From Candidatus Eiseniibacteriota bacterium (GTDB taxonomy: Bacteria > Eisenbacteria > RBG-16-71-46 > JABDJR01 > JAWXBZ01): a stretch of DNA of 13,271 nucleotides. Below the pieces are notes generated by a model that made no database searches, was not told the origin of the DNA, and was given only the letters and a program-made list of their open reading frames with translations. Where the stretch lies: the NCBI GenBank assembly GCA_034440375.1, contig JAWXBZ010000026.1, positions 1 through 13,271 on the forward strand, read 5' to 3'. How positions within the stretch are numbered: the first letter of the stretch is position 1; each line of letters opens with the position of its first letter. Both the position numbers and the translations under genes were made by a program. Shown piece after piece: positions 2 to 13,271 of the stretch.

Positions 2-589
2 GCCAAACTCCGGATGGATCAGCGGCGCCGGATGGGGAATGGCCGGCACCGCGCTGTGCAGGAGAAAGCCGGTCACGCCGTACCGGCTGGCCAGCCGGTG
101 CGACTGTTGGCCCGTCTGGGTTATCACCGCATGAGCCCGGGTCAGTCCACGGCGATACAGGAAGCGATCTCGCCAGTTGGCGGAGGCCTCCCAGCCCCCG
201 TCGACATTGGAATCATTCGATATCATGAAGACAAAGCGAAAGCCGTCTCGATGAGCCTGGTCGGCCAGAAGCCCGACGAACGGTGAGGCGGATCGGAGAA
301 TCACGACGTCCGGTCGCTCGCTTCGAATCACGTCGCCGAGCCTCTTTGCGGCAGTGAAGACGCCGAAGAAAGGAAGCCCCTGCCTTGCCGACCAGGCCTG
401 CCGAACGCGGACCCCCATGACGACGGCTTCCGCCGCGGTGTCATCCCCCTCGGTCAGGATGACCACCTCGTGCCCCCGCGCCGCCAACCCCCGGGCCAGT
501 CGCGTCACCTGGAGTTCGGCACCCCCGTGGATTCCCGGAGTGTCTGTGGCCACGTTCCATGCCTGCGGGCTGACGAAGGTGATGCGCAT
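2..589 (-). CDS. Glycosyltransferase family 4 (GT-B), N-terminal part; runs off the window edge
   Basis: Not in the ORF track; read manually. ATG at 589-587 overlaps the flippase TGA (TGATG). Open frame to the edge: MRITFVSPQAW...HGGAELQVTRLARGLAARGHEVVILT...RSERPDVVILRS..., a typical GT4 N-terminal motif set. Confidence 0.88.
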   Translation of the reverse strand, partial: MRITFVSPQAWNVATDTPGIHGGAELQVTRLARGLAARGHEVVILTEGDDTAAEAVVMGVRVRQAWSARQGLPFFGVFTAAKRLGDVIRSERPDVVILRSASPFVGLLADQAHRDGFRFVFMISNDSNVDGGWEASANWRDRFLYRRGLTRAHAVITQTGQQSHRLASRYGVTGFLLHSAVPAIPHPAPLIHPEFG

Positions 590-1905
590 CAGGGCCGACC
601 GCCGCCGGTCACTTGATTCCACAGCTGTGTCGCGGCGGCGGGATAGATTTTCAGATCCTCAACGGTCGGCACGAGGCACGACCGGTAGCCGGTGCCCGAT
701 ACGCGGACGAAGAGGACCAGCATTACGAGACCGTTCACGATATAGGCCAGCGAGGTGGCGATGGCCGCACCGGTCACGTTGAGGGCGCCGATCAGGAAGA
801 ACAGGAGCGGTATGTTGACGAGGAGCGACAGCACCGAGGCGATCGAGTTCAGTCTTGGCTGGCCAACGCCCGAGAGATATTTTGACAGCACCCGGTTCAA
901 CACGCTGGCCAGGATCCCCGGCAGCAGCAGGTTCATCGGTGTCACGGAGGCCCTGAATCCATCGCCATACAAAAGATTGATCACCCATGGCCCGGTGACC
1001 CACAGGCCGAGGCAGGCCACCGCGGTGATCAACATCGTGTGGCGACAGACCATCGGCGTCAGGCGGTTGGCTTCCTCGCGGCTGGAGGAAGCAACGCGCG
1101 GAAAGAGAATGCGCCCCACCGAATCGGGGAGATACCAGAGCACCTGCGCCATGCTGGTGGCCACTGAGAAGAGGCCCACCGCCGCGGCGCCTGCCAGCGA
1201 GGAGAGGATCAGCGTCGAGATCTGGTGATTGGCCCGCATGGCCATGTTGCCGACGTGCGTCACGGCGCTGTATCGAAGTTGATCCTTTGCCAGGCTACGA
1301 TCGATGCGCCAGTCAAAGCCGGTGCGTGTCACGAGCCCCACCACGTAAAGAATGCCGGTCAGGATCCACGAGGCGAATTCGGCGGCTACGGCCCCGGCGA
1401 CACCAGCTTTCAGCGGCACGAGCGCGATGAAAAGAAAGACTGCCCGCGACACATGCAGCGTGAGATTCCCGGCAATGAACCAGGAAAGTCGATTCATCGC
1501 AATCAGCATGCCATCGCCATAGTTCTTGAGCAGCATGAGCGGCAGTACCGCGAGGCCCGCCAGGACGAACCGCACGGGGACGTCGGGCACCACCTCCCGG
1601 ACAATCGGACCAAGCCCCGCGAGGCAGACCCCCAGGTACAGAATGCCCAGGCCGAATGCGGCAATCAGCGTATGGCTCACCACCCGCCGGGCGTCGACAC
1701 CCCGCCCGAGGAAGTAGGTGCTGGCCTCACCAATCGACAACGAACCGAGGCTGGCCAGGAAGCTGGGCAGGTAAAAAGCCAGGAGGGCGATTCCCTTTCC
1801 CTCCGGCCCCAGCAGCCGGGCGGTCAGGACCCCCGCGCCCATGCCGAACACCAACTGGATGATGCTGGTCAGGAAGATCAGCATCGATTGCCGGCGAATG
1901 CTCAA
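589..1905 (-). CDS. Wzx-like oligosaccharide flippase / polysaccharide biosynthesis membrane protein (MOP superfamily)
   Basis: 438 aa with many hydrophobic helices; motifs ARLLGPEGKG, AVGLFSVA, ILFPRVA, LYGDGF, GAAIATSLAY. The TTG start overlaps the upstream TGA; an alternative ATG lies at 1884. Confidence 0.88.
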   Translation of the reverse strand: MSIRRQSMLIFLTSIIQLVFGMGAGVLTARLLGPEGKGIALLAFYLPSFLASLGSLSIGEASTYFLGRGVDARRVVSHTLIAAFGLGILYLGVCLAGLGPIVREVVPDVPVRFVLAGLAVLPLMLLKNYGDGMLIAMNRLSWFIAGNLTLHVSRAVFLFIALVPLKAGVAGAVAAEFASWILTGILYVVGLVTRTGFDWRIDRSLAKDQLRYSAVTHVGNMAMRANHQISTLILSSLAGAAAVGLFSVATSMAQVLWYLPDSVGRILFPRVASSSREEANRLTPMVCRHTMLITAVACLGLWVTGPWVINLLYGDGFRASVTPMNLLLPGILASVLNRVLSKYLSGVGQPRLNSIASVLSLLVNIPLLFFLIGALNVTGAAIATSLAYIVNGLVMLVLFVRVSGTGYRSCLVPTVEDLKIYPAAATQLWNQVTGGGRP

Positions 1906-2999
1906 GCCATGACCTTTTCAAAGAGGGTGGACAGGGTTTCAACCGCCACCGGCACATCGTACCGATTCTCGGCCTCCAGGCGATTGTACCGGCCGATGAC
2001 GCGGCGTCGCTCCGGGTCGCGTATCAGGCCCCGCAGCGCTTCCACAAACCCTTCGATGTCGCCCGGCTCTCTCAAGTGGCCATGAATGTTTTCGGTCACC
2101 ATTTCCGGAATCACCGGCACATCGGTGGTCACGACCGGCAGCCCCGCGGCCATCGCCTCGAGCACGACGTTGGGAAAGATTTCGGCATAGGTCGGCAGGA
2201 CGAAGATGTCGGCGCCGGCAAAGAGAGCCGCCTTCTCGTCTCCCGAGCGATAGCCGTGGAAGACGAGATGATCGCCGAGGCCGAGTTCGGAAGTTCGTTC
2301 CCGGATCCAGCGCTCCTCCGCCCCGGTTTCGGCGATCCCGACCAGGTCGACTCGAAAGTTGGGGTCGGTCTCCTTCAGTTGTCCGGCCACCTCCAGGAGA
2401 TCGAACGCCCCCTTGTCGCGCGAGAGCCGGCCGACGAAGAGAATCCGTACCGGGCCTTCGCCGGTCCGTTCCAGAGGCGGGGCGATGGCTGACACGTCGA
2501 CCACATTCGGCAGGACAATGATCGGTTGCCCCGGGAACATCCGCCCGAAGATCGTCTGGAGGCCGGGGGAGAGGACGATCGTCACGCTGGCCATCCGCAT
2601 CGCGCGGGCCACCTGCCGCGGCCAGAACCCGGTTTCGGCGAAGAGGCGTCCCATCGGTCGGCCATGAAGATGACAGACCACCTTCAGGCCAAAGAGGCGT
2701 GCGATGGCCATCAGGGTGGCGTCGCGGATGAATCCGGTATCGCTGGTGGCCTTCAGGTAGACCAACCCCGGGCGGCGGCGGATCAGGCGCCCCACCATCC
2801 GGAGGCTGTTCCAAACCAGGTAGGGAAAGCTCCAGATGTCCGCCTGGCTGACCTTCACGTGCCGGACGTGCTTGGAGGTTCGAAGCAGGTCCAGGTCATA
2901 GCGGCGGGAAAGGTCGGACCGCAAGAGGAGGCTCATGTTGTTCCCCAGCCCGCCGAACGGGGGGGGAAAGGGTCCGACCATCAGGATTTTTGGCTTCAT
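1902..2999 (-). CDS. Glycosyltransferase family 4 (GT-B, retaining)
   Basis: 365 aa; KILMVGPFPPPFGG, ILFVGRLSRDKG, ADIFVLPTYAEIFPNVVLEAMAAGLPVV (E-x7-E motif). Confidence 0.93.
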   Translation of the reverse strand: MKPKILMVGPFPPPFGGLGNNMSLLLRSDLSRRYDLDLLRTSKHVRHVKVSQADIWSFPYLVWNSLRMVGRLIRRRPGLVYLKATSDTGFIRDATLMAIARLFGLKVVCHLHGRPMGRLFAETGFWPRQVARAMRMASVTIVLSPGLQTIFGRMFPGQPIIVLPNVVDVSAIAPPLERTGEGPVRILFVGRLSRDKGAFDLLEVAGQLKETDPNFRVDLVGIAETGAEERWIRERTSELGLGDHLVFHGYRSGDEKAALFAGADIFVLPTYAEIFPNVVLEAMAAGLPVVTTDVPVIPEMVTENIHGHLREPGDIEGFVEALRGLIRDPERRRVIGRYNRLEAENRYDVPVAVETLSTLFEKVMA

Positions 3000-3027: not shown

Positions 3028-3036
3028 ATTGTACCA
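3028..3036 (-). promoter_or_regulatory. Putative extended -10 promoter (TGgTACAAT) for the GT4-flippase-GT4 operon
   Basis: The minus strand reads TGGTACAAT 28 nt upstream of the ATG at 2999, in an AT-richer divergent intergenic region. Confidence 0.55.
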
Positions 3037-3096
3037 GAAAGACTTAAGCCGGACGATATTCCGACTTTGCCGGTGGGCGGTCAACGCGGAACGGGC

Positions 3097-3102
3097 TACC
3101 AT
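3097..3102 (+). promoter_or_regulatory. Possible -10 box (TACCAT) 7 nt before ATG 3110; leaderless-type arrangement
   Basis: ggcTACCATgggcggcATG; no SD before either in-frame ATG (3101, 3110). Confidence 0.4.
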
Positions 3103-3109
3103 GGGCGGC

Positions 3110-4237
3110 ATGCGAGTGGCATTTGTGGCCTCGACACTGGCAATGGGCGGGGCGGAGCGGATCACGGGCGAGGCATCGGAGCGGCTGGTCGCCCGGGGCC
3201 ACGAGGTCGTCTGGCTGCTCCTTCGTGAACCGGGTCTCGAGGGGGAGCGGCTCCTTAAGCGGGGCATGGTCATCGAATCGGGCCTCGGCCATCGACGATT
3301 CGATCCGTTCACGCCGGGGCGCCTGGCCGCGCGCCTAGAGGCCCACGGTGTCGAGGCGGTCTGGTGTCTTGATCATCAGAATGCGGTGGTCAATCTGGCG
3401 TTGGCGTCGCGCCGGTCGCCGATCATGGAGCGCCTTTTCCTTGCCGTCCACACCACCGGACTCTGGGGTGGCGGGTCGAGTGTTCCGCGTGGTGTGCGGG
3501 CGGTGTTGCCAATTTTCACAAATGTGATCGCGGTGGCCGAGGCGCAACGGCGGTATCTGGTTGATGGGCTTGGCATGTTGGAGGGGCAGGTGGTGGTGGT
3601 TCGGAATGGGATTGATGTTTCCCGATTCTCGGCGACGCTGGAACGAACCACCCGGGCCGTGGAATTCCGTCGATCCTGGGCCGGCGCCTCGACGGGCCCG
3701 ATAGTGGGAGTCATCGCGGCGCTTCGTCCGGAGAAGGGGCACATCGATCTGATCGACGTCCTCGCAACAAACGCCGATCGGCTCGGGTCGGTTCATCTCG
3801 TTCTCGTTGGTGACGGCCCGATGCGCAAGGCGATCGAAAAGCGGGCGGCGGGACGAAACGTCCGCGTCCATTTCCTCGGGGCCCGCTCGGACGTGGCCGA
3901 TCTGTTGCCGGCGTTCGATCTGGTTGTGCTCCCGTCGCGCCCCGTCGTCGAAACGTTGCCCCTGTCGGTCATGGAGGCGATGGCGGCGGGTCGGCCGGTT
4001 GTGGCCACCCGGGTCGGGGCGCTCGATGAGCTGATTGAGGACGGCGTGAGCGGCTGGCTGGTGCCGCCCTTGGACCCGGCCGCCCTGGCCGATCGCCTGG
4101 TTGCCTGCTTCGGCGATCCGGGTGGAATGACCCGGATTGGCCGGAACGCCGCGGAACGTGCCCGGTCCTTCGACATCGAAACCACCGTGGATGCGATGGC
4201 CCGACTTCTCACAGGCCCTCGTCAAGGATTGCTATAA
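3110..4237 (+). CDS. Glycosyltransferase family 4 (GT-B)
   Basis: MRVAFVASTLAMGGAER...LVARGHEV; VRNGID; ALRPEKGH; FLGARSDVADLL; ETLPLSVMEAMAAGRPVVAT. Start placed at ATG 3110 (GT4-like N-terminus) rather than the track's TTG 3029; ATG 3101 is also possible. Confidence 0.92.
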   Translation: MRVAFVASTLAMGGAERITGEASERLVARGHEVVWLLLREPGLEGERLLKRGMVIESGLGHRRFDPFTPGRLAARLEAHGVEAVWCLDHQNAVVNLALASRRSPIMERLFLAVHTTGLWGGGSSVPRGVRAVLPIFTNVIAVAEAQRRYLVDGLGMLEGQVVVVRNGIDVSRFSATLERTTRAVEFRRSWAGASTGPIVGVIAALRPEKGHIDLIDVLATNADRLGSVHLVLVGDGPMRKAIEKRAAGRNVRVHFLGARSDVADLLPAFDLVVLPSRPVVETLPLSVMEAMAAGRPVVATRVGALDELIEDGVSGWLVPPLDPAALADRLVACFGDPGGMTRIGRNAAERARSFDIETTVDAMARLLTGPRQGLL

Positions 4238-4238: not shown

Positions 4239-4275
4239 CGTGCGTTCCATTCGCCTAGATCGGAGAACCTGACGC

Positions 4276-7200
4276 ATGATCCAGCCCTCGACCACGCACC
4301 GGATGATCCTGGCGCACCATCCCCGCTTTGGCCAGCTTTACGTGCCGGGGATCAACGCCCGCGTCCCGGGCCCGGCGGGGCCGTACTTCCTTTCGACCAA
4401 CGGCCAGGGTTTCCGCTCGGACTGGGAGTTCCGCCGCGAAAAGAGCGGCAAGCCCCGTATCCTGGTCTTCGGCGATTCGTATACCGCGGGGGATGGCGTT
4501 ACGAATCAAGCTCGTTTCGCCGAGAAACTGGGCGAAACCTACGGCGCTGAAGTTTTCAACTTCGGTGTCGCCGGCACCGGCACCGACCAGCACCTGATGA
4601 TTTTCGAGGAAGTGGCCAAAAGCGTCCCCGCCGACCTGATCATCCTTGCCGTGGCCGTCCACAACATCGATCGGATCAAGGTCGGCTACCGAGAATATAT
4701 CGAACGGACGACCGGCGAGCGGGTCCTCGGGGCAAAACCCTTCTTCGAGCTGGCGAATGGACAGCTCGAACTGCGCGGCGTGCCCGTCCCCATCGAGCGC
4801 CCGCGGGCGGCCGATGCCAGGAAGGGCACCTACGAAGAACCGGTCCTCCACGACAATGACGGCGGCTTCAGCCTCATCAACAAGGTCCGCGACGGCCTGC
4901 GGCTCCGCCAGTTCGAGTCGACGATCGAGAAACACGCACCCGATCTCAAGCCGTCGATTCGGGCTAAACTCCTCAGGGCCAGGAATTTCCAGCCGCACGA
5001 GGACTACCGCTCGGCCAACACGCCCGGGTGGCAACTCATGCAGGCGATCCTGGCGCGCTTCGTCGCCGGCTCCCGGCCGACGCCGCTCCTCATTGTGCCG
5101 ATCCCCACCTGGTACTTTTACTATGACGAAGTGCCGCCGATCTACCAGCCGCTCTTCGAATCGCTGGAAGACCGATCGAAGGAAGTCCACGTCATGGACT
5201 TGACGACACCGCTCGTCAGCCTGCCGCGCGCCGAGCGCCGCCGGATCCCGCTTGGAACCGACACACATTTTTCGCCGGAAGGGCATGCCCGAATCGCCGA
5301 CCTGATCGCCGCCGAGATCGACAAACGGGGGATCCTGCCCGGTCGACGCGAAGCCATGGCTTTGAGCGTCGTCGGACGCCGCGCAAGGTCAGCCGAACCG
5401 CCGCCCGGCGCCGGCAGTGACAAGCCGCGCTACATCCTGGGACTCTCCTGTTTCTACCACAATTCCGGTGCGGCGCTGCTCCGGGACGGCCAGATCGTGG
5501 CCGCCGCCGAGGAGGAGCGTTTCAGCCGCATCAAGAACGACCCGCGCTTCCCGGTGTCGGCCGTCAATTTCTGCCTCGAAGAAGGAAACATCCAGCCGAA
5601 CGACCTCGCGGCGGTCGTCTACTACGACAACCCCGCGCTGACCTTCGAGCGGATCTTTCACACCCTCCTGTCGCTGGGCGAAAAGGGGGAAGAGGCCTGG
5701 ATGCGCATCCTCCCGTTCTGGGTGGGGCAAAAGCTCCACATCCCCGAACTGGTTCGGGAAGCCCTCGGCTACGGGGGCCTCGTCCTGCAGGAGACGCATC
5801 ACCGAAGCCACGCCGCCAGCGCCTTCTATCCCTCCCCCTTCGCGCGAGCCGCCATCCTGACCATTGATGGCGTGGGGGAGTGGGCCACCGCCACCGTTGG
5901 CGTCGGCCGTGACGCCGACTTGACGCTTCTCCAGGAGATGCGCTTTCCGCACTCTCTTGGGCTTCTGTATTCCGCGTTCACCCAGTTCACCGGCTTCAAG
6001 GTGAATTCCGGCGAGTACAAGATGATGGGTTTGGCTCCCTACGGCGAACCGAAGTACGTCGATCGAATCCTCGAGAAGCTGGTCAGCCTCAAGGATGACG
6101 GCTCGATCGAGCTCAACATGGAGTATTTCGGCTTCCTGCACGAAGCCTCCATGACTTCGGACAAGATGGCTGAGCTCTTCGACGGCCCCCCCCGCGAAAT
6201 GGAAAGCCGCATCACCCGGCGTGAAATGGACATGGCCCGATCGGTCCAGGTCGTCACCGAAGAGGCCATGCTCCGCATGGCCCGCCACGCGAAGAAGCTC
6301 ACCGGTGAATCAAAGCTCTGCCTGGCGGGCGGCGTGGCGCTGAACTGCGTGGCCAACGGCCGTGTCCTGCGTGAAGGCCCGTTCGACGATCTGTGGATCC
6401 AGCCGGCGGCGGGCGATTCCGGCGGTGCTCTCGGCGCCGCCTACGACGTGCATCACAACTGGTTCAAGCAACCGCGCGTCAGGACGACCGACGGACGCGC
6501 GGCCATGAAGGCCTCCTGGTGGGGTCCGGGCTACTCCAACAACGAAATTGATGCCTTCCTGAAAACGTACGGCTGCCCGGCCATCAAGCTGGCGCCTGAG
6601 GACCGTGCTGGCCGCATTGCCGACCTGCTTGCCGAAGGCAAGATCATCGGTCACTTCGCCGGCCGCACCGAGTTCGGCCCCCGGGCGCTGGGAGCCCGTT
6701 CCATCATCGGCGATCCCCGCAATCCCGACATGCAGGCCAGGCTGAATCTCAAGATCAAGTTCCGCGAGTCGTTCCGCCCCTTTGCGCCGGCCGTCCTGGC
6801 AGAACGGATCGGCGACTACTTCGAGCTCGATCGCGAAAGCCCCTATATGCTTCTAGTGGCCCCTGTCCGCAAGGAACGCCGCCTGGTCCCCGAAAAGGTG
6901 GAAGGGGAGGACATGCTCGTCACCGTGAAGCAGCTCCGCAGCGACATCCCCGCCATTACCCACATCGACTACTCCGCCCGCGTCCAATCCGCAACCCGGG
7001 AAGACACTGGCCCCTACTACGACCTCATCAAAGCGTTCGAAACCAAAACCGGTTGCGCCGTCATCGTCAACACCTCGTTCAACGTCCGAGGCGAACCGAT
7101 CGTGAACACGCCAGCCGAGGCCTACCGCTGCTTCATGAAGACACACATGGATGCGCTGGTCCTGGGCGACTATCTCCTCCTGAAAGAAGAGCAGCCGGCG

Positions 7201-7614
7201 TCGTCGGCGCTGCCGGAGCCGGTATCGAAGGAAGCTCCCGCGCGCGAACTTGATCCCGCGACATCCGAGGAACTCCGCAAGATATACCGCGAAGAGTTTC
7301 TGCCGCTGGCGAAGCGGCTGGCCGGAAACGGCGTGGAAGTGTCCGAAAAGCCAACCGGCAAATCCAGCCTCTGGCGGGAACTCAACGAGTCCGCCGATCC
7401 CAGGGTCATCTTTCAGATTCCCGAGAGCCTGTCCGACCCGGCGGCGCCTCCCGCCGAGGCCGCCCGCGCCATCCTCGGCTATTGGTCCGAAGGCCCAGTC
7501 AAATCCGCCGCCGAACCGGTGCTGACGCGATTGCTGACGTTGAGCCGGAAGCTGCCGCTGGCGATCGACCAGGGGCACGCCACGGTTCATGACACGATTT
7601 ATGTAATGTACTAG
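4276..7614 (+). CDS. Fusion: N-terminal SGNH/GDSL hydrolase-like domain + NodU/CmcH/TobZ-family O-carbamoyltransferase + C-terminal extension
   Basis: 1112-aa uninterrupted ORF. SGNH blocks: FGDSY (Ser68), NFGVAGTG, HNID, TDTHFS (Asp329/His331). Carbamoyltransferase from about residue 386: EEERFSRIK, HHRSHAASAF, IDGVGE, GEYKMMGLAPYG, AGGVALNC, PAAGDSG, EFGPRALGARS, KIKFRESFRPFAP, THIDYSARVQ, NTSFNVRGEPIV. Confidence 0.93.
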   Translation: MIQPSTTHRMILAHHPRFGQLYVPGINARVPGPAGPYFLSTNGQGFRSDWEFRREKSGKPRILVFGDSYTAGDGVTNQARFAEKLGETYGAEVFNFGVAGTGTDQHLMIFEEVAKSVPADLIILAVAVHNIDRIKVGYREYIERTTGERVLGAKPFFELANGQLELRGVPVPIERPRAADARKGTYEEPVLHDNDGGFSLINKVRDGLRLRQFESTIEKHAPDLKPSIRAKLLRARNFQPHEDYRSANTPGWQLMQAILARFVAGSRPTPLLIVPIPTWYFYYDEVPPIYQPLFESLEDRSKEVHVMDLTTPLVSLPRAERRRIPLGTDTHFSPEGHARIADLIAAEIDKRGILPGRREAMALSVVGRRARSAEPPPGAGSDKPRYILGLSCFYHNSGAALLRDGQIVAAAEEERFSRIKNDPRFPVSAVNFCLEEGNIQPNDLAAVVYYDNPALTFERIFHTLLSLGEKGEEAWMRILPFWVGQKLHIPELVREALGYGGLVLQETHHRSHAASAFYPSPFARAAILTIDGVGEWATATVGVGRDADLTLLQEMRFPHSLGLLYSAFTQFTGFKVNSGEYKMMGLAPYGEPKYVDRILEKLVSLKDDGSIELNMEYFGFLHEASMTSDKMAELFDGPPREMESRITRREMDMARSVQVVTEEAMLRMARHAKKLTGESKLCLAGGVALNCVANGRVLREGPFDDLWIQPAAGDSGGALGAAYDVHHNWFKQPRVRTTDGRAAMKASWWGPGYSNNEIDAFLKTYGCPAIKLAPEDRAGRIADLLAEGKIIGHFAGRTEFGPRALGARSIIGDPRNPDMQARLNLKIKFRESFRPFAPAVLAERIGDYFELDRESPYMLLVAPVRKERRLVPEKVEGEDMLVTVKQLRSDIPAITHIDYSARVQSATREDTGPYYDLIKAFETKTGCAVIVNTSFNVRGEPIVNTPAEAYRCFMKTHMDALVLGDYLLLKEEQPASSALPEPVSKEAPARELDPATSEELRKIYREEFLPLAKRLAGNGVEVSEKPTGKSSLWRELNESADPRVIFQIPESLSDPAAPPAEAARAILGYWSEGPVKSAAEPVLTRLLTLSRKLPLAIDQGHATVHDTIYVMY

Positions 7615-8267
7615 CATGACATGCCCCTGACACTTCACTTCCTGCGCCACGGACAGACGCCCTTCAGTCGCGAGAATGTCTTCTGTGGATCCGGGCTGGA
7701 CCCGGACTTGACCGATGACGGTCTGGAGATGGCGAAAGGCTTTGCCGCGGTGTATCGCGTCACGCCCTGGAACGCCGTCTATGCCAGCCCGCTCCAGCGA
7801 GCGGTAGCGACCGCGCAGCCACTGTGTCGGGCGATTCCGATGAAAATGGAATTGCGTGATGACCTGAAAGAGATCAGCTACGGCAAGTGGGAGGGGATGT
7901 CGGCGGAGGCGGTGAACCGGGAATATCACGATGACTACATCCGGTGGTCAACCGATCCAGCCTGGAATGCGCCGACGGAGGGAGAGCCGGCCATCATGAT
8001 CGCGCGGCGGGGCCTGCGAGTGATCGAGGAGATTACCCAGGCACATCGAACCGGCAATGTCCTGATCGTCTCGCACAAGGCCACGATCAGAATCCTGTTG
8101 TGCAGCCTTCTGGGAATCGACCTGGGGCGCTTCCGATCCCGCCTGGCCTGTCCGGTAAGCTCCATCAGTTTGATTGAGCTTGGCAGCCAGGGGCCCCAGC
8201 TGAAGGTACTGGCGGATCGAGCCCACCTGAACGAGCGGCTGAGGCAATTGCCCGGGACATGACATGC
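7615..8267. repeat. 10-bp direct repeat CATGACATGC at 7615-7624 and 8258-8267, bracketing the phosphatase gene
   Basis: Exact match read directly from the sequence. The left copy contains the ATG (7621) and the right copy contains the TGA (8260-8262). Confidence 0.75.
7621..8262 (+). CDS. Histidine phosphatase superfamily protein (phosphoglycerate mutase-like, branch 1)
   Basis: 213 aa; LRHGQT (RHG), YASPLQRA, LKEISYGKWEG, LIVSHKATIR. Confidence 0.93.
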   Translation: MPLTLHFLRHGQTPFSRENVFCGSGLDPDLTDDGLEMAKGFAAVYRVTPWNAVYASPLQRAVATAQPLCRAIPMKMELRDDLKEISYGKWEGMSAEAVNREYHDDYIRWSTDPAWNAPTEGEPAIMIARRGLRVIEEITQAHRTGNVLIVSHKATIRILLCSLLGIDLGRFRSRLACPVSSISLIELGSQGPQLKVLADRAHLNERLRQLPGT

Positions 8268-8514
8268 GGCGAACAAGCGAAATGATACACGCACGACGCG
8301 CAGAGTCCGGTGAACATGGACGGTAATCCTATCAGCCACAATGGATGAGGGCGACCCCGGACCGGAGTGACGTACTGATTCAAGGTGAGTCAGGGAGAAG
8401 GCTGTGATCGCAAGCATTCGAGTAAAGAGTGCCGCCACCAGTAGTCAGCTTGATGCAGGTTGGTACGATCTCCCAGTCGACCCGTTCACATCGAGGCAGC
8501 AGGCCGCCTGGTGC

Positions 8515-8904
8515 CTATGTATACCGCCGCGACCCAGTACGCGGGTCGATCAATCCCCGGCCGAACGTGACGCGGAAGCCCGTCAGGACGGAGTCGGTGA
8601 TCCCGGAGAAGAGGGTTTCGAGTTGAGGAAGTTCAGGGCGGTTTTCAGACCAGGAGCTGCCAGTCTGTGGAAGAAGCCAGGGCAGGGCGGAGCCTAAGAG
8701 GCGTTGCCGAACCAGCCCCTTCCACCTGTATAAGGTGCGCGGCGAAACGAGTTCCTCGCCGTCCCCCGCTTCGGACGCCCGGAGACAGGCGGCCTCGACT
8801 CCGTCTCGAACCACATGAAGGAACGCTTTCAGGAGCGAGGGGATCGTGTAGCGGCCCCGCCAGAGCTGGCCGGGCAGGAGAGACACCGTCCCGCCCGTGC
8901 AGTG
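8515..8904 (-). pseudogene. Truncated transposon-associated ORF (DUF6431-like, with a helix-turn-helix remnant)
   Basis: The frame reads ...HCTGGTVSLLPGQLWRGRYT...VSPRTLYRW. This resembles the C..T.SLLP..L....Y / RTL.RW pattern of small Zn-ribbon/HTH proteins found next to Mu-like transposases. No intact N-terminus or convincing start. Recognised from memory only. Confidence 0.4.
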
Positions 8905-8962
8905 AGCGCTGGCTGGAGCTGGAGGCGATCGCGGCGGGCTCCGGAGAGTGAGAATCCCGGAG

Positions 8963-8993
8963 ACGACTTAGTCGTTAGTCAGCGATAGCTGAC
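8963..8993. repeat. Two adjacent perfect inverted repeats: ACGACT-T-AGTCGT (8963-8975) and GTCAGC-GATA-GCTGAC (8978-8993)
   Basis: Read directly from the sequence; intergenic, downstream of the kinase stop and upstream of the mobile-like remnant. Confidence 0.7.
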
Positions 8994-9027: not shown

Positions 9028-11277
9028 TCAGCGGCCGCCCGTCGTGCGTTTTAAACCTTCACGGGCCGTCCCCACTCTCTCATCACCGGCGGGGAGAATG
9101 GCCAGGACACGCTCGTACTGGAAGCGGGCGCTGTCGGCAATTCCCCGGGCCTCGTAAATGCGTCCAAGTTCCAGCCGGATCACGGACTCGTAGTCCGGTG
9201 TTTCCGCGAGCGCCGGGGAGCGCCCGGCCTCGAAAAGCACGCTCCGAGCCGCCGCGGAATCGCCGTTCTCGTTTAGAAACGTCGCGTACTCGTACGCGAC
9301 CTCAGGATTATGATCCGTCACATCCATGCCGGTTTCCAGGCATCGAAGGGCCTCTTCGACGTGACCGAGTTTCTGGTGAGCCCTGGACGCCAGCACATAG
9401 GTCCAGCTCCAACCCCAGCGTTCCTTCACGAGCGGTTCCAGAACTTCAATGCACGATTCAAACCGGCCGGCCGTGAAATATCCGCGGCCGAGCAGATAGG
9501 TGAAAAACCGGTTTTCGGGGTAGATCGTGCGGGCGGAAGAAGCCACCTGGATCACCCGCTCCGGCTCCATGGATACGACGGCGTCGATCACATCGATCTG
9601 CAGAGCGTCGCGCGGGGACGCTTGACCGCGCTGTGCTTTCAGCGTCGACAGGTTCTCCTGCACCCGGACTTCGTCGCCGAGATTCCAGTAGCCTCCCACG
9701 AGATCCACGCGGGCCGCGACGAACTGGCTGTCGAGCCCCACCGACTGCCCGGCGTAATTCACGGCCTCCCGCCAGCGGGAGGCAATGAAGGCCTCGTGCG
9801 CGCGCAGGTAGAGCCGGTAGGCGTCCGACGACGTCGTCGTGATGTCGCGCAGCCACTGGTCTTCGGCCCCCGCCCGGACCAGGTCGATTTCCAGCCAGGT
9901 CTGCAGCTTCGGAATGAGGCCGCCCGCGAGAAGGAAAAGATCGTCGGACGCCGGCCCCGAGAGCGCGTCGGCGTGAAGTATCCGGCCCCCTTCAACGTCC
10001 ACCACCCGGCACTGGATGCTGATGTCGCCGCCGGAGCGGAGAATGCTTCCGACGATGGCCCGGCCGATGCCGCGAGCCTTGAGACGTTCGAACATCGACG
10101 ACTGGAGATCGGCCGAGAGCTCCGTTTTCTCCAGGAGATTCGCCAGTCGCTGCGGATCGTAGACGTCGAGGTCCCGGGATCGAGCCAGAGCTGTTCCGAG
10201 AAGCTCCGGTAGCCCGCGGCCGATCCAGTCGAAGGAAGCGTCGCCGGTGAGATTATCGAACTCGAGCATCGCGATCGCCCGGGGACGGGCCGACTTTTCG
10301 AAAGACGGCCGGGTGGCGGGATGCCGGCGCACGGCGACGGCGAAGATCGCCAACGCGATCACCGGGAGCAGGGTGTACACCCACGGGTGGACATGTCGCG
10401 GCCGGGCTCGCCCTGACGCCGGAACTGATCCGCCGATGTTCTTCAGCGCATCGAGAATCTCGCGGGCAGAGGCGAAGCGCGCGGCCGGTTCCTTTTCGAG
10501 GCATCGCTTCACGATGGCCTCCAGCGTGGTCGGCACACCCCGTGCGGAGTCTGAGATCGGCGGGGGATCATCTTTGAGAATCGCCGCGGCGACCTCCGCC
10601 CAGGTGTTTCCGGGAAAGGCTCGCCGTCCGGTCAGGAGCTCATGGAGAATCAGCCCGAAGCTGAAGAAATCGGCGCGTTGATCGACGGGTCGGCCCAGGT
10701 GCTGCTCCGGAGACATGTAGCCCATGGTTCCCATGACGGTGCCGGGCGTCGTGACACTCGTGATCGTGGAGCTCAACTCGTCCGGTGATCCGGACGGAAT
10801 CGTGAACCGGGCCAGGCCGAAATCCAGAATCTTGACGCGCCCGTCCGGCGTGACCATCACATTTTCCGGCTTCAGGTCGCGGTGAACAATCCCGCGATCG
10901 TGCATCGCGGTCAGTCCCGAGGCCATCTGCCGCGCGATATCGATCACCTCAGGCGACGGAAGGGGCCCGGCGGCGAGTCTCTCCCGAAGCGTCGAGCCTT
11001 CGAGCAGCTCCGTCACGGCGTAGGTCGTTCCCTGCTCTGAGCCGACGTCGAACAAGGCCAGTATATTCGGATGCGCCAAGGCGGCGACGGCCATGGCTTC
11101 GCGACCGAATCGCGCCATCGCCTCCGGGTCCATCGTCGCCGCTTCGGGCAGGACCTTGATCGCCACCTCGCGCTGCAGCCGCGTGTCCCGCGCGCGATAG
11201 ACCTCCCCCATTCCTCCGGCCCCGAGGGGGGCGATGATTTCGTAGGGCCCGAGACGGTTCCCGGCGGAGAGCTGCAT
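9028..11277 (-). CDS. Hanks-type Ser/Thr protein kinase with a transmembrane helix, a TolB-N/FlgO-like domain and TPR repeats
   Basis: 749 aa; LGAGGMGEVY, VAIK, HRDLKPEN, KILDFGLAR, GTMGYMSPEQ. TM segment WVYTLLPVIALAIFAVAV, then AIAMLEFDNLTGD..DWIGRGLPELL, TTSSDAYRLYLRA and helical TPR-like repeats. Confidence 0.95.
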   Translation of the reverse strand: MQLSAGNRLGPYEIIAPLGAGGMGEVYRARDTRLQREVAIKVLPEAATMDPEAMARFGREAMAVAALAHPNILALFDVGSEQGTTYAVTELLEGSTLRERLAAGPLPSPEVIDIARQMASGLTAMHDRGIVHRDLKPENVMVTPDGRVKILDFGLARFTIPSGSPDELSSTITSVTTPGTVMGTMGYMSPEQHLGRPVDQRADFFSFGLILHELLTGRRAFPGNTWAEVAAAILKDDPPPISDSARGVPTTLEAIVKRCLEKEPAARFASAREILDALKNIGGSVPASGRARPRHVHPWVYTLLPVIALAIFAVAVRRHPATRPSFEKSARPRAIAMLEFDNLTGDASFDWIGRGLPELLGTALARSRDLDVYDPQRLANLLEKTELSADLQSSMFERLKARGIGRAIVGSILRSGGDISIQCRVVDVEGGRILHADALSGPASDDLFLLAGGLIPKLQTWLEIDLVRAGAEDQWLRDITTTSSDAYRLYLRAHEAFIASRWREAVNYAGQSVGLDSQFVAARVDLVGGYWNLGDEVRVQENLSTLKAQRGQASPRDALQIDVIDAVVSMEPERVIQVASSARTIYPENRFFTYLLGRGYFTAGRFESCIEVLEPLVKERWGWSWTYVLASRAHQKLGHVEEALRCLETGMDVTDHNPEVAYEYATFLNENGDSAAARSVLFEAGRSPALAETPDYESVIRLELGRIYEARGIADSARFQYERVLAILPAGDERVGTAREGLKRTTGGR

Positions 11278-11351: not shown

Positions 11352-11978
11352 TCATTGCTCATGAGGGTCCGGCGGACCGTCCTGCCTCTCTCTCCAGAGA
11401 CGCCGATACTCGTCGGCCACGCTCGGATCCAGTTGATCCGCCAGCTCGTTCGGCAGGTTGAGAATGCCGGTCAGATCCTGAACATCCGCCAGATCGCGCA
11501 GCCGCCGGTGAGGCGCCGTCATTCCGGAGGCCAGCTTGAGCTCGATCAGCTTCGCGAGAGAGATGACGCGGAAACCGTCACCGGGTTCACCAGCCAAGGC
11601 CGGGTCCGGGAACGACACGAGCTTCGGTTTTCCGTCACCCGGGAACTCACCCGTCGTCAGCACTTCGATATGAACTCCGGATTCCGTGTCCTGGAATGAT
11701 TTTCGAGCCCCGGAAAAAGCCGGAACGTATCCGCGCCCGACGAAATCACGGTGAAACTGATCCAGTCCTTCGGGCCTGAGGTGAATGTCCACGTCGCGCG
11801 TGAACCGTTCGTAGCCGTGGGCGATCAGCGCCAGGCCACCGATGAGAGCATAGGGAATACGTTCGTCGTCCAGATTCCGGGCGAGCCGCTGCAGCGACTC
11901 CCAGACCGGTCCCTTTTTCATGAAGAGGAGATCTCCCTCGCGGGCGGCGTTCCACGCGGGGCGGGGCGATTCAGCCAT
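11352..11978 (-). CDS. Pol-beta-superfamily nucleotidyltransferase (AbiEii-like / toxin-antitoxin-associated type)
   Basis: 208 aa; YALIGGLALIAHGYERFTRDVDI (GG.A...HG..R.T.D.D), then LIELKLAS...RLRDLADV. Confidence 0.8.
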   Translation of the reverse strand: MAESPRPAWNAAREGDLLFMKKGPVWESLQRLARNLDDERIPYALIGGLALIAHGYERFTRDVDIHLRPEGLDQFHRDFVGRGYVPAFSGARKSFQDTESGVHIEVLTTGEFPGDGKPKLVSFPDPALAGEPGDGFRVISLAKLIELKLASGMTAPHRRLRDLADVQDLTGILNLPNELADQLDPSVADEYRRLWRERQDGPPDPHEQ

Positions 11979-12672: not shown

Positions 12673-13271
12673 ATGACACCGAGACCCCCGCCATCGGCAC
12701 GAATTCTCCAGGTCAACAAATTCCACTGGGTCAAGGGTGGCTCCGAGCGCTACTACTTCGATCTGGTGAACGGGCTGGCGGCACGCGGGCACGAGGTGGC
12801 GGTGTTCGCCTCGCATCATCCGAGCAACCTTGAAACATCATGGAGTCGCCACTTTGCGCCCGGGGCGGACTATCACGGCGCCGGGCCGCTGACGGCCCTG
12901 AAGCTGGCCGGCGAGGTAATTGACAACAAGCCGGCGGCGAAGGCGCTCGAAGGGCTGCTGGCCGATTTCCGCCCCGACGTGGCCCATCTGCACAACATTC
13001 ACCACCAGCTTTCCCCGTCGATTCTCCGTGTATTCGAACAAGCCCGCGTTCCGGTCGTCCAGACGTTGCATGACTACAAGTGGGTCTGCCCGGCCTATCT
13101 TTTTCTCTCCCATGGCAAGGTCTGTGAGCGGTGCGGGCCCGGAAATCGGTTCACGCCGGTGCTGCTGCGCGGCTGTCATCACGGCTGTCACTTGAAGAGT
13201 GCCATCGTGTGGAAGGAGTCGAGTGACTCGTGGGGGCGGGGTGATTTGGAGCGGGTGGGGCGGTTCCTGGC
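12673..13271 (+). CDS. Glycosyltransferase family 4 with a Cys-rich insert, N-terminal part; runs off the window edge
   Basis: Not in the ORF track; read manually from ATG 12673: RILQVNKFHWVKGGSERYYFDL..GLAARGHEV...FRPDVAHLHNIHHQLSPSIL...VVQTLHDYKWVCP...CERC...C. Confidence 0.9.
   Translation, partial: MTPRPPPSARILQVNKFHWVKGGSERYYFDLVNGLAARGHEVAVFASHHPSNLETSWSRHFAPGADYHGAGPLTALKLAGEVIDNKPAAKALEGLLADFRPDVAHLHNIHHQLSPSILRVFEQARVPVVQTLHDYKWVCPAYLFLSHGKVCERCGPGNRFTPVLLRGCHHGCHLKSAIVWKESSDSWGRGDLERVGRFL

Follow-up and report, generated by a model that had tools for sequence, protein, structure and literature searches.

According to the account in PMC12148441, the "acyl shuttle" hexapeptide FXYXXF forms the C-terminus of DltX and of bacterial MBOAT proteins, PatA among them (NgPatA ends FIYANF). 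The MBOAT enzyme acylates the invariant Tyr of this hexapeptide, and the acyl group then moves onto a Ser of the SGNH partner, DltD or PatB, which passes it to the polymer. Acyl-tyrosine shuttles have been recognized only recently, and so far only among membrane MBOAT and AT3 proteins with SGNH partners, acting on extracellular polymers. Here we describe what may be a soluble counterpart. It lies in a 13,271-nt stretch of a Candidatus Eiseniibacteriota genome (contig JAWXBZ010000026.1; "the window" hereafter means that whole stretch), where one open reading frame (ORF; 4276..7614, + strand, 1112 aa) joins an SGNH domain, a linker, a carbamoyltransferase (CT) and a carrier tail that ends in a tyrosine motif. 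By analogy with the known shuttles we lean, if only slightly, toward reading this ORF as a soluble, cytoplasmic, three-module carbamoyl relay in a single chain, in which the CT would load Tyr1109 of the tail and Ser68 of the SGNH domain would pass the group to a glycan precursor. In the literature that we searched, we found no publication on an SGNH–carbamoyltransferase fusion or on a carbamoyltransferase linked to a tyrosine shuttle.

Several features are shared with the Dlt, Pat and OatA shuttles. As in DltX and PatA, the hexapeptide is strictly C-terminal, its third residue being an invariant Tyr and its last an aromatic one (F[IV]Y[VA]M[FY] in the carriers of those relatives in which the modules are separate genes, hereafter split systems). 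The SGNH partner has a Ser-His(-Asp) set, and the carrier can be a separate small protein or can be fused to its loader. The relay logic would be that of the known shuttles, with differences in loader, transferred group, compartment and carrier. In the Dlt, Pat and OatA group the loader is a membrane MBOAT or AT3 protein, the group is acetyl or D-alanyl and the acceptor is an extracytoplasmic envelope polymer; here the loader would be a soluble, ATP-dependent TobZ-type CT (the ORF contains no MBOAT or AT3 domain, although one split relative, described below, has an AT3–carrier protein), the group would be carbamoyl, and all parts, lacking signal and transmembrane (TM) segments, are predicted to be cytoplasmic. 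DltX is a TM microprotein, whereas the carrier here is a folded domain of 100-140 aa. The motif of the fusions also differs at its first position, with S, T or A in place of the aromatic residue of FXYXXF; the split carriers mostly end SPF[IV]YVMF, and that end is the FXYXXF motif of DltX and PatA.

The closest relatives of the CT module, TobZ, GdmN, NovN and VtdB, are stand-alone enzymes of ~570-700 aa that act directly on small-molecule hydroxyls, whereas here the enzyme is extended by an SGNH domain at the N-terminus and by a Tyr-tailed carrier at the C-terminus. The YrdC-like half of TobZ-type enzymes makes carbamoyl-adenylate from ATP and carbamoyl phosphate.

A carrier module with a C-terminal tyrosine

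An earlier note on this DNA described the SGNH and CT parts of the ORF and overlooked its third module, residues 973-1112 (7192..7611, +). The chain ends with the hexapeptide T-I-Y-V-M-Y-COOH (7594..7611, +), in which the TAT codon at 7600..7602 (+) encodes Tyr1109, the residue proposed to carry the carbamoyl group. Conservation among the fusions was counted over 85 full-length relatives, the query included. The C-terminus is exactly x-[VIM]-Y-[VAE]-[ML]-[FY]-COOH in 81 of them, which places the Tyr at position -4; the four exceptions are short proteins of 1001-1065 aa. The window protein and the other fusions fit only the more general shuttle-type motif x-hydrophobic-Y-x-x-[FY], position -6 being S, T or A. 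In the AlphaFold2 model of the full-length chain (predicted local distance difference test score, pLDDT, 87.5; predicted template modelling score, pTM, 0.90), the last 22 residues are extended, with a pLDDT of 55-79; the parts modeled with low confidence are residues 1-7, 191-205 and 367-380, the last of these lying in the linker.

Neither Pfam nor NCBIfam has a family that matches the last 140 residues or the separate carriers of 100-127 aa found in split systems, and an ESM Atlas search with the tail gave no usable match. Homology between the fused tails and these carriers runs from end to end (HHalign 98.4%, E 9e-15, over 111 columns that include the C-terminus), and the single invariant column in an alignment of 41 carriers with the window tail is the -4 Tyr. 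A carrier profile run against 1.84 billion representative proteins found 830 clusters (50% identity) at E<=1e-3, with 550 at E<=1e-10. Among the top 150 of these 830 representatives, all of which are 104-160 aa long, Tyr stands at -4 in 149 (the exception is cut six residues short) and the end is [FY]xYxx[FY]-COOH in 129. When 835 other ORFs of the same loci were taken as a specificity control, seven ended Y..[FYH], comprising two carriers and five genes of an MBOAT cluster that end FIYFQF (an assignment made from a scan of the cluster representative alone), and the remaining 828 included none with such an end. A word-based search for longer proteins containing the carrier domain returned just two close relatives of the query, which says little about other loaders.

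In one relative (L075), an extra 91-aa frame (15842-16114) that lies ~2.5 kb past the fusion repeats the end of the tail (QVSESVYVMF); it may be a duplicated carrier fragment.

The carbamoyltransferase module

That the ORF contains a full NodU/CmcH/TobZ-type enzyme, as the earlier note had claimed, is borne out by both of its Pfam domains, which score far above their cut-offs. Carbam_trans_N, the Kae1/ASKHA-like transfer domain, covers residues 387-722 (5434..6441, +; 2.6e-84, 284 bits against a cut-off of 24), and Carbam_trans_C, the YrdC-like domain expected to form carbamoyl-adenylate, covers residues 782-969 (6619..7182, +; 4.7e-69, 231.7 bits against a cut-off of 27). The fold matches GdmN (7vzq, E 2.4e-41) and TobZ (3ver, E 9e-39), as well as NovN and VtdB (E 1e-37 to 1e-41 for the set), with 30-34% identity over ~620 aligned columns, and PDB titles record carbamoyl-adenylate complexes for TobZ, GdmN and VtdB. 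Across the 85 fusions Asp714 is invariant, and conservation reaches at least 90% at His395, His508, His512 and Asp531. These residues align with the FHD, HHEAHA, DGRGE and HDAG motifs of GdmN. In TobZ-type enzymes an N-terminal His is catalytic in the transfer site, and an HxxxH motif and two Asp bind metal; we take the residues listed to be this transfer-site base and these metal ligands.

To judge by these motifs, the CT looks complete, its own transfer site included. The SGNH domain is therefore not required for transfer as such, and it makes sense only if the acceptor of the CT is the Tyr of the tail. The earlier suggestion of a self-contained relay with the SGNH domain as its terminal transferase is partly borne out, and its new support comes from the carrier module, with its invariant Tyr in a shuttle motif of the DltX/PatA type.

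The SGNH module

The SGNH domain (residues ~8-356; 4297..5343, +) has an N-terminal beta extension and a helical insert. Pfam recognizes Lipase_GDSL_2 at residues 64-133 (4e-9). The N-terminus, conserved from about residue 8, is part of the fold. The Ser68/Asp329/His331 set that had been reported for this ORF is present in the window. The proposed nucleophile, Ser68 (codon 4477..4479, +), lies in GDSYTAG and His331 in TDTHF, and both are invariant in the 85 fusions, as is the whole of block I (G66-D67-S68). Position 329 is more variable, with Asp in 55 fusions, Gly in 28, and Glu and Asn in one each. In a second alignment, A2, which holds the window SGNH domain and 53 stand-alone relatives, Asp329 is invariant and Ser68 is found in all 54 rows. 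The Asp329-Thr-His331 segment (5260..5268, +) constitutes block V, with the spacing DxH rather than the DxxH of the SGNH/GDSL superfamily. Candidates for the block II Gly, which with the block III Asn makes up the oxyanion hole, are G100 (84/85) and G102 (81/85); the block III position, residue 130, is Asn in 52, Ser in 29 and Asp in four of the fusions, and at least 90% Asn in A2. Also invariant in the fusions are R29, N42, R47, R61, R80, D104, Q105 and R133, and the arginines among them may bind a free C-terminal carboxylate or a pyrophosphate.

Modeled alone, the domain has a pLDDT of 87, and its closest solved structure is CgnD (8a2n), which is matched over model residues 8-348, N-terminal extension included (VIA-align Z 22.4, root-mean-square deviation 3.7 over 239 residues, 18% identity; Foldseek E 2.8e-9). 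The next matches (Z <=16.9), to generic GDSL esterases, are confined to the core, from residue 59 on; dozens of GDSL esterases match this flavodoxin-like fold at Z 13-17 over 165-190 residues. Among the matches listed, DltD stands at Foldseek rank 40 (E 7.8e-4) and PatB has a Z of 13.4; AlgX and AlgJ are not among the 50 fold matches listed, which is no ground for rejecting a likeness of fold. At the level of sequence, the A2 profile searched against PDB sequences at E<=1 did not list CgnD; it gave weak generic GDSL matches and weak matches to AlgJ (E 0.006) and AlgX (E 0.009).

The resemblance of the DxH block to AlgJ and AlgX that the earlier note had pointed out is thus real, but it is weak and local, and the closest fold is that of CgnD. 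The Pfam ALGX family (PF16822) matches residues 300-364 (2.5e-6, 27.8 bits against a cut-off of 26.5), which is 65 of its 268 profile positions (83-147). AlgX and AlgJ are, moreover, periplasmic, whereas this protein has no N-terminal hydrophobic segment, and its nucleophilic Ser, like that of classical SGNH enzymes, belongs to an N-terminal GDS block.

CgnD itself is described as a peptidase with the triad Ser79/Asp325/His328; its substrate is the 21-aa peptide CgnA, from which it slowly removes the C-terminal Ile-Tyr-Trp core, and its pathway includes a carbamoyltransferase as well, CgnI (from the account in PMC10070186). The parallel extends to the layout of the catalytic residues and to the substrate, a short peptide with a Tyr near its free C-terminus; CgnD differs in its DxxH spacing and in being a stand-alone enzyme of a pathway for peptides that are synthesized ribosomally and modified post-translationally (RiPPs).

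In one alternative the SGNH domain acts as a hydrolase, with the tail as its substrate or regulator. It would then be a decarbamoylase with an editing or resetting role, or else its activity would be gated by the tail as a pseudo-substrate. The CT would carbamoylate either its own tail or the final acceptor, and the SGNH domain would strip off the carbamoyl, or some other acyl group, by hydrolysis. The closest structure being that of a hydrolase (activity as given in PMC10070186), the retention of an esterase-like, canonical block II Gly and the complete transfer site of the CT would all suit this scheme. It gives no reason, however, for every informative system (see below) to have kept a dedicated carrier with precisely that shuttle motif; a futile cycle of loading and hydrolysis would waste ATP, and the known systems with this motif are transfer relays. 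We therefore consider it unlikely.

One chain in the window and in its relatives

The frame is open throughout 4276..7614 (+), in agreement with the earlier description of a single uninterrupted ORF, and a likely ribosome-binding site, GGAGA (4262..4266, +), is found 10 nt ahead of the ATG. The SGNH and CT modules are joined, as had also been described, by a Pro/Gly/Ala-rich linker (residues ~357-385; 5344..5430, +) that includes the stretch ..RSAEPPPGAGSDKP.., has a pLDDT below 50 at residues 367-380 and corresponds to gapped columns in relatives. The reported lack of signal and TM segments holds for all 1112 residues: in a Kyte–Doolittle scan with 19-residue windows the highest mean, 1.51 at residue 113, falls within the SGNH core, and the maximum over the first 40 windows is 0.46.

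Searching a protein database with the SGNH part of the query matched 88 proteins, or 89 with the query; 85 of these 89 (query included) share the Pfam architecture of the query and have lengths of 1000-1200 aa. Their named sources include Candidatus Eisenbacteria, Minicystis, Sorangium, Phaselicystis and planctomycetes, and the databases call these fusion proteins only "carbamoyltransferase" or similar. A genome scan with one genome per species found relatives in 328 species-level genomes, from which 79 loci were fetched and kept; these span Acidobacteriota, Planctomycetota, Verrucomicrobiota, Lentisphaerota, Nitrospira, Gemmatimonadota, Chloroflexota, Myxococcota and Burkholderiales, among others. 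When hidden Markov models of the three parts (SGNH, CT and tail), built from the alignment, were applied to these 79 loci, all three parts were found in a single frame in 56. The SGNH–CT junction lies in one frame in eight more, the remainder of those ORFs being cut off or frameshifted, and the other 15 comprise nine true split systems, two contig ends and four frameshifted contigs of metagenome-assembled genomes (MAGs). An assembly artefact at the junction, where a stop or frameshift near 5340-5430 might have been suspected, is ruled out by the 84 database relatives of fusion length together with the 56 single-frame loci: the fusion is not an artefact, because its relatives occur in 328 genomes and most of the fetched loci hold the whole of it in one frame.

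A FastTree phylogeny of SGNH domains (67 of 132 rows, taking every second one) fits a single change between the fused and split states, with weak support (58). One verrucomicrobial MAG contains a tandem pair of complete SGNH–CT–tail fusions (L026: 9953-13294 and 13290-16610).

Split systems keep all three modules

Stand-alone relatives of the SGNH domain (~336 aa) are abundant, with 331 matches, and in nine genome loci the SGNH gene lies directly upstream of a ~620-aa CT gene. To these we added 80 metagenome loci with a stand-alone SGNH gene, fetched from a set of 449 relatives. A CT gene follows directly downstream on the same strand in 67 of the 80 and lies elsewhere in the locus in two; the other 11 contigs end within 300 nt, which leaves 69 informative loci, none of which has an SGNH gene without a CT. 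Thus, over the informative genome and metagenome loci, the SGNH family of this fusion is never found without a carbamoyltransferase.

The carrier is kept just as strictly. Of 90 split loci scanned, 37 do not include the 3′ end of the CT gene and six have less than 450 nt after it; in all 47 informative loci that remain, a carrier is present. In 44 it is a separate downstream ORF that ends 295-376 nt past the CT stop, and in two the tail is fused to the CT; all 46 end in Y..[FYH], typically (D/E)VSPF[VI]YVMF. An FIYAMF end is found in four of the 47 scanned carriers (L072, L074, L081 and L085) and in the two CT–tail fusions (L082 and L088). In the 47th locus (L150), the SGNH and CT pair has no carrier gene of its own, but a convergent gene (7118-8977, -) encodes an AT3 acyltransferase (PF01757, 3.6e-18) with a C-terminal carrier domain that ends PSPYIYAMF. 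Fused or split, then, the co-occurrence of the three modules is obligate, and the motif with the invariant Tyr is strictly C-terminal. The SGNH and carrier modules have no conserved partners other than CTs, which leaves the CT as the sole candidate for the loader.

There is mostly a 13-nt overlap between the CT stop and the ATG with which the separate carriers (100-127 aa) begin. We had considered the ...W..(Y/F/H)ELD end of the split CTs as a possible second Tyr motif, and rejected it, since several loci have F or H in place of the Tyr. This ...W..YELD end is conserved because the carrier ATG overlaps there (..TATGA.., for example at L087:6831 and L096:6825), and its conservation at the protein level probably reflects translational coupling.

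These observations bear on a second alternative, in which the SGNH domain and the CT perform two independent tailoring steps: the SGNH domain, as an O-acyl esterase, would unmask a hydroxyl (for instance by removing an acetyl group), the CT would carbamoylate that hydroxyl directly, and the tail would be a structural brace. Each of the two enzymes looks catalytically complete, and polysaccharide deacetylase, hexapeptide acetyltransferase and MBOAT genes recur in the loci of relatives, both of which speak for this scheme. But a brace would explain neither a lone invariant Tyr, always at -4 on an unstructured acidic tail, nor its identity with the MBOAT and DltX motif, nor the probable translational coupling of carrier and CT, and two independent steps seem to us decidedly improbable.

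One split system, on a plasmid of Paraburkholderia caribensis (L083: 7528-13526), consists of a class II aminoacyl-tRNA synthetase-like fragment, an SGNH gene, an ORF without a Pfam match, a CT gene and a carrier ending SQFVYVMY. Its order resembles the gvgA-gvgC-gvgF core of gvg-like clusters; the likeness is one of gene order, and we do not claim identity.

The gvg and PNP-1 clusters, which we compare by description only, bring together an SGNH/GDSL esterase (gvgA), a NodU-type carbamoyltransferase (gvgF) and essential small ORFs (gvgB and gvgG), with a conserved core of gvgA, B, C and F in many bacteria; they differ in making small-molecule products and in having other enzymes that are absent here. 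Together with CgnD, they suggest a third alternative of a RiPP-like kind, in which the C-terminal Tyr peptide is the precursor of a product that is carbamoylated and then cut off by the CgnD-like SGNH domain acting as a peptidase, as in crocagin biosynthesis and in enzyme-fused core peptides. That CgnD removes an Ile-Tyr-Trp core from a 21-aa peptide in a pathway with its own carbamoyltransferase, and that the gvg and PNP-1 clusters combine esterase, carbamoyltransferase and essential small ORFs, are points in its favor. A 1112-aa enzyme used for a single turnover would, however, be costly; the end motif is near-uniform across many phyla, unlike most RiPP cores; other RiPP enzymes and exporters are not conserved nearby, and the window is a glycan locus. 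We regard a peptide product as very improbable.

A possible membrane version of the tyrosine partner

The genome of the window has a second CT set, on contig C31 (L170: 4256-5584, 5663-7558, 7389-7991 and 10713-10949). It includes a GDSL-like ORF, a CT that is 56% identical to the CT part of the fusion and a 200-aa ORF ending RYFRQF; ~3 kb further on, a 79-aa frame matches DUF5989 (Pfam 1.7e-18), has one TM helix and ends APFIYTLF, which contains the FXYXXF motif. Three of four split-type relatives that we inspected (L166:905-1123, -; L167:3149-3883, +; L168:3322-3921, +; all from the same class) have a CT followed by a membrane ORF and then by a TM microprotein of ~50 aa that ends PFIYALF, PFIYTLF or PFIYAIF; in the fourth, L169, there is no such microprotein within 1.5 kb. 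From their ends, the microproteins of L166-L168 appear to be a membrane version of the Tyr-tail partner. The arrangement of CT, membrane ORF and TM microprotein recalls SxtI/J/K and gvgF/gvgG, again by description only.

In another locus, L061, which has a full fusion, a second carbamoyltransferase lies beside an SxtJ-domain ORF (PF19588) (17038-17445 and 17628-18791, -).

A proposed carbamoyl relay

On the reading that we favor, the single-chain relay, the YrdC-like half of the CT would form carbamoyl-adenylate from ATP and carbamoyl phosphate, and the Kae1-like half, instead of delivering the carbamoyl group to the final substrate, would place it on the phenol of Tyr1109, which lies close to the free C-terminus (position -4) on the extended, acidic tail of the carrier domain. 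The tail would then swing to the SGNH domain, where Ser68, with His331 and Asp329, would accept the group as carbamoyl-serine, and the SGNH domain would hand it on to a hydroxyl of a cytoplasmic glycan precursor before Wzx flipping. The acceptor in the window would most likely be a nucleotide sugar or an undecaprenyl-PP-linked repeat built by the neighboring GT4 enzymes. The loader needs ATP and carbamoyl phosphate, so the relay should be cytoplasmic. We infer both intermediates, carbamoyl-Tyr and carbamoyl-Ser, along with the direction of transfer and the acceptor; the SGNH domain and the CT both look, from their conserved residues, like active enzymes.

Several points weigh against this relay. 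TobZ-family enzymes carbamoylate their final acceptors directly, and we know of no family member that uses a Tyr phenol, although no search was aimed at one. Carbamoyl-serine enzymes are generally long-lived, as carbamate inhibitor chemistry shows. Position -6 of the fusions is S, T or A and not the aromatic F of FXYXXF, and Asp329 is replaced by Gly in 28 of the 85 fusions. CgnD, the nearest structure solved, hydrolyzes peptides slowly and is not a transferase. The block II Gly that this SGNH domain retains is replaced in PatB and OatA, by the account of those proteins in PMC12148441. Finally, roughly half of the relatives' loci are without nearby glycan genes, so that the acceptor may differ between lineages.

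The odds seem to us about even that this is the first soluble, cytoplasmic tyrosine-shuttle relay and the first with an ATP-dependent TobZ-type loader, built around an unnamed carrier family of at least 830 clusters that would move carbamoyl to an SGNH enzyme and come in three guises: single-chain, three-gene and with a membrane microprotein (DUF5989). If so, it would account for the long-puzzling small ORFs beside carbamoyltransferases (SxtJ/K and GvgB/G), and it would widen the acyl-tyrosine mechanism of DltX and PatA past membrane acyltransferases and past acyl groups. The same Tyr motif on a soluble carrier that always accompanies a CT and an SGNH protein points to a wider principle of group transfer, and would give a concrete role to the small genes and additional domains found with many carbamoyltransferases. 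The relay further predicts O-carbamoylated envelope glycans in many uncultured phyla, and the single-chain form found in the window would be a convenient object on which to test it.

Gene neighborhood in the window and in relatives

Four GT4 genes and a flippase had been reported around the fusion, and domain scans confirm them. A GT4 glycosyltransferase (3029..4237, +) lies directly upstream on the same strand, preceded by a second one (1902..2999, -), a Wzx/MurJ-type polysaccharide flippase (589..1905, -) and a third GT4 gene that is cut by the window end (2..622, -); the fourth (12673..13269, +) is cut by the other end. A histidine phosphatase (His_Phos_1, 2.4e-52; 7621..8262, +) begins 6 nt past the fusion stop and is probably co-transcribed with the fusion, and its BLAST cluster is found in fewer than three of 80 sources (the 79 loci and the window). 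Between the fusion and the last GT4 gene lie a Ser/Thr protein kinase with C-terminal TPR repeats (9028-11277, -; domain scan) and a nucleotidyltransferase-like ORF (11352-11978, -) that weakly resembles AbiEii/NTP_transf_5.

Among relatives, GT4 genes are found in 25 of the 79 genome loci, and 38 have at least one gene labeled as belonging to a glycan pathway. The labeled set comprised GT4, Wzx, Wzy, initiating sugar transferases, epimerases, UDP-glucose dehydrogenase, DegT, NeuB, AsnB, polysaccharide deacetylases, MBOAT and heparinase-like proteins. For the 39 of the remaining 41 loci that have the fusion among their called genes, we scanned 128 of 133 unlabeled flanking ORFs (up to three per side), and this added few glycan genes: a flippase in L015, GT2, GT4 and AT3 genes in L064 and a nucleotidyltransferase in L036, the other neighbors being unrelated. 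The association with glycan loci that the earlier note had expected of homologues is therefore frequent, and it holds for the window, but it is not universal.

A different neighbor recurs in fifteen loci, most of them acidobacterial (L027, L029-L032, L035, L037, L039, L042, L043, L047, L061, L062, L070 and L073), in which the fusion is followed by a convergent gene for a protein of ~530 aa with a GINT1_N domain. Several of these loci, from Acidobacteriaceae and Korobacteraceae, also have SDR, AMP-binding, hexapeptide-transferase, ATP-grasp and LuxC/LuxE genes, forming a conserved neighborhood that does not look like a glycan locus.

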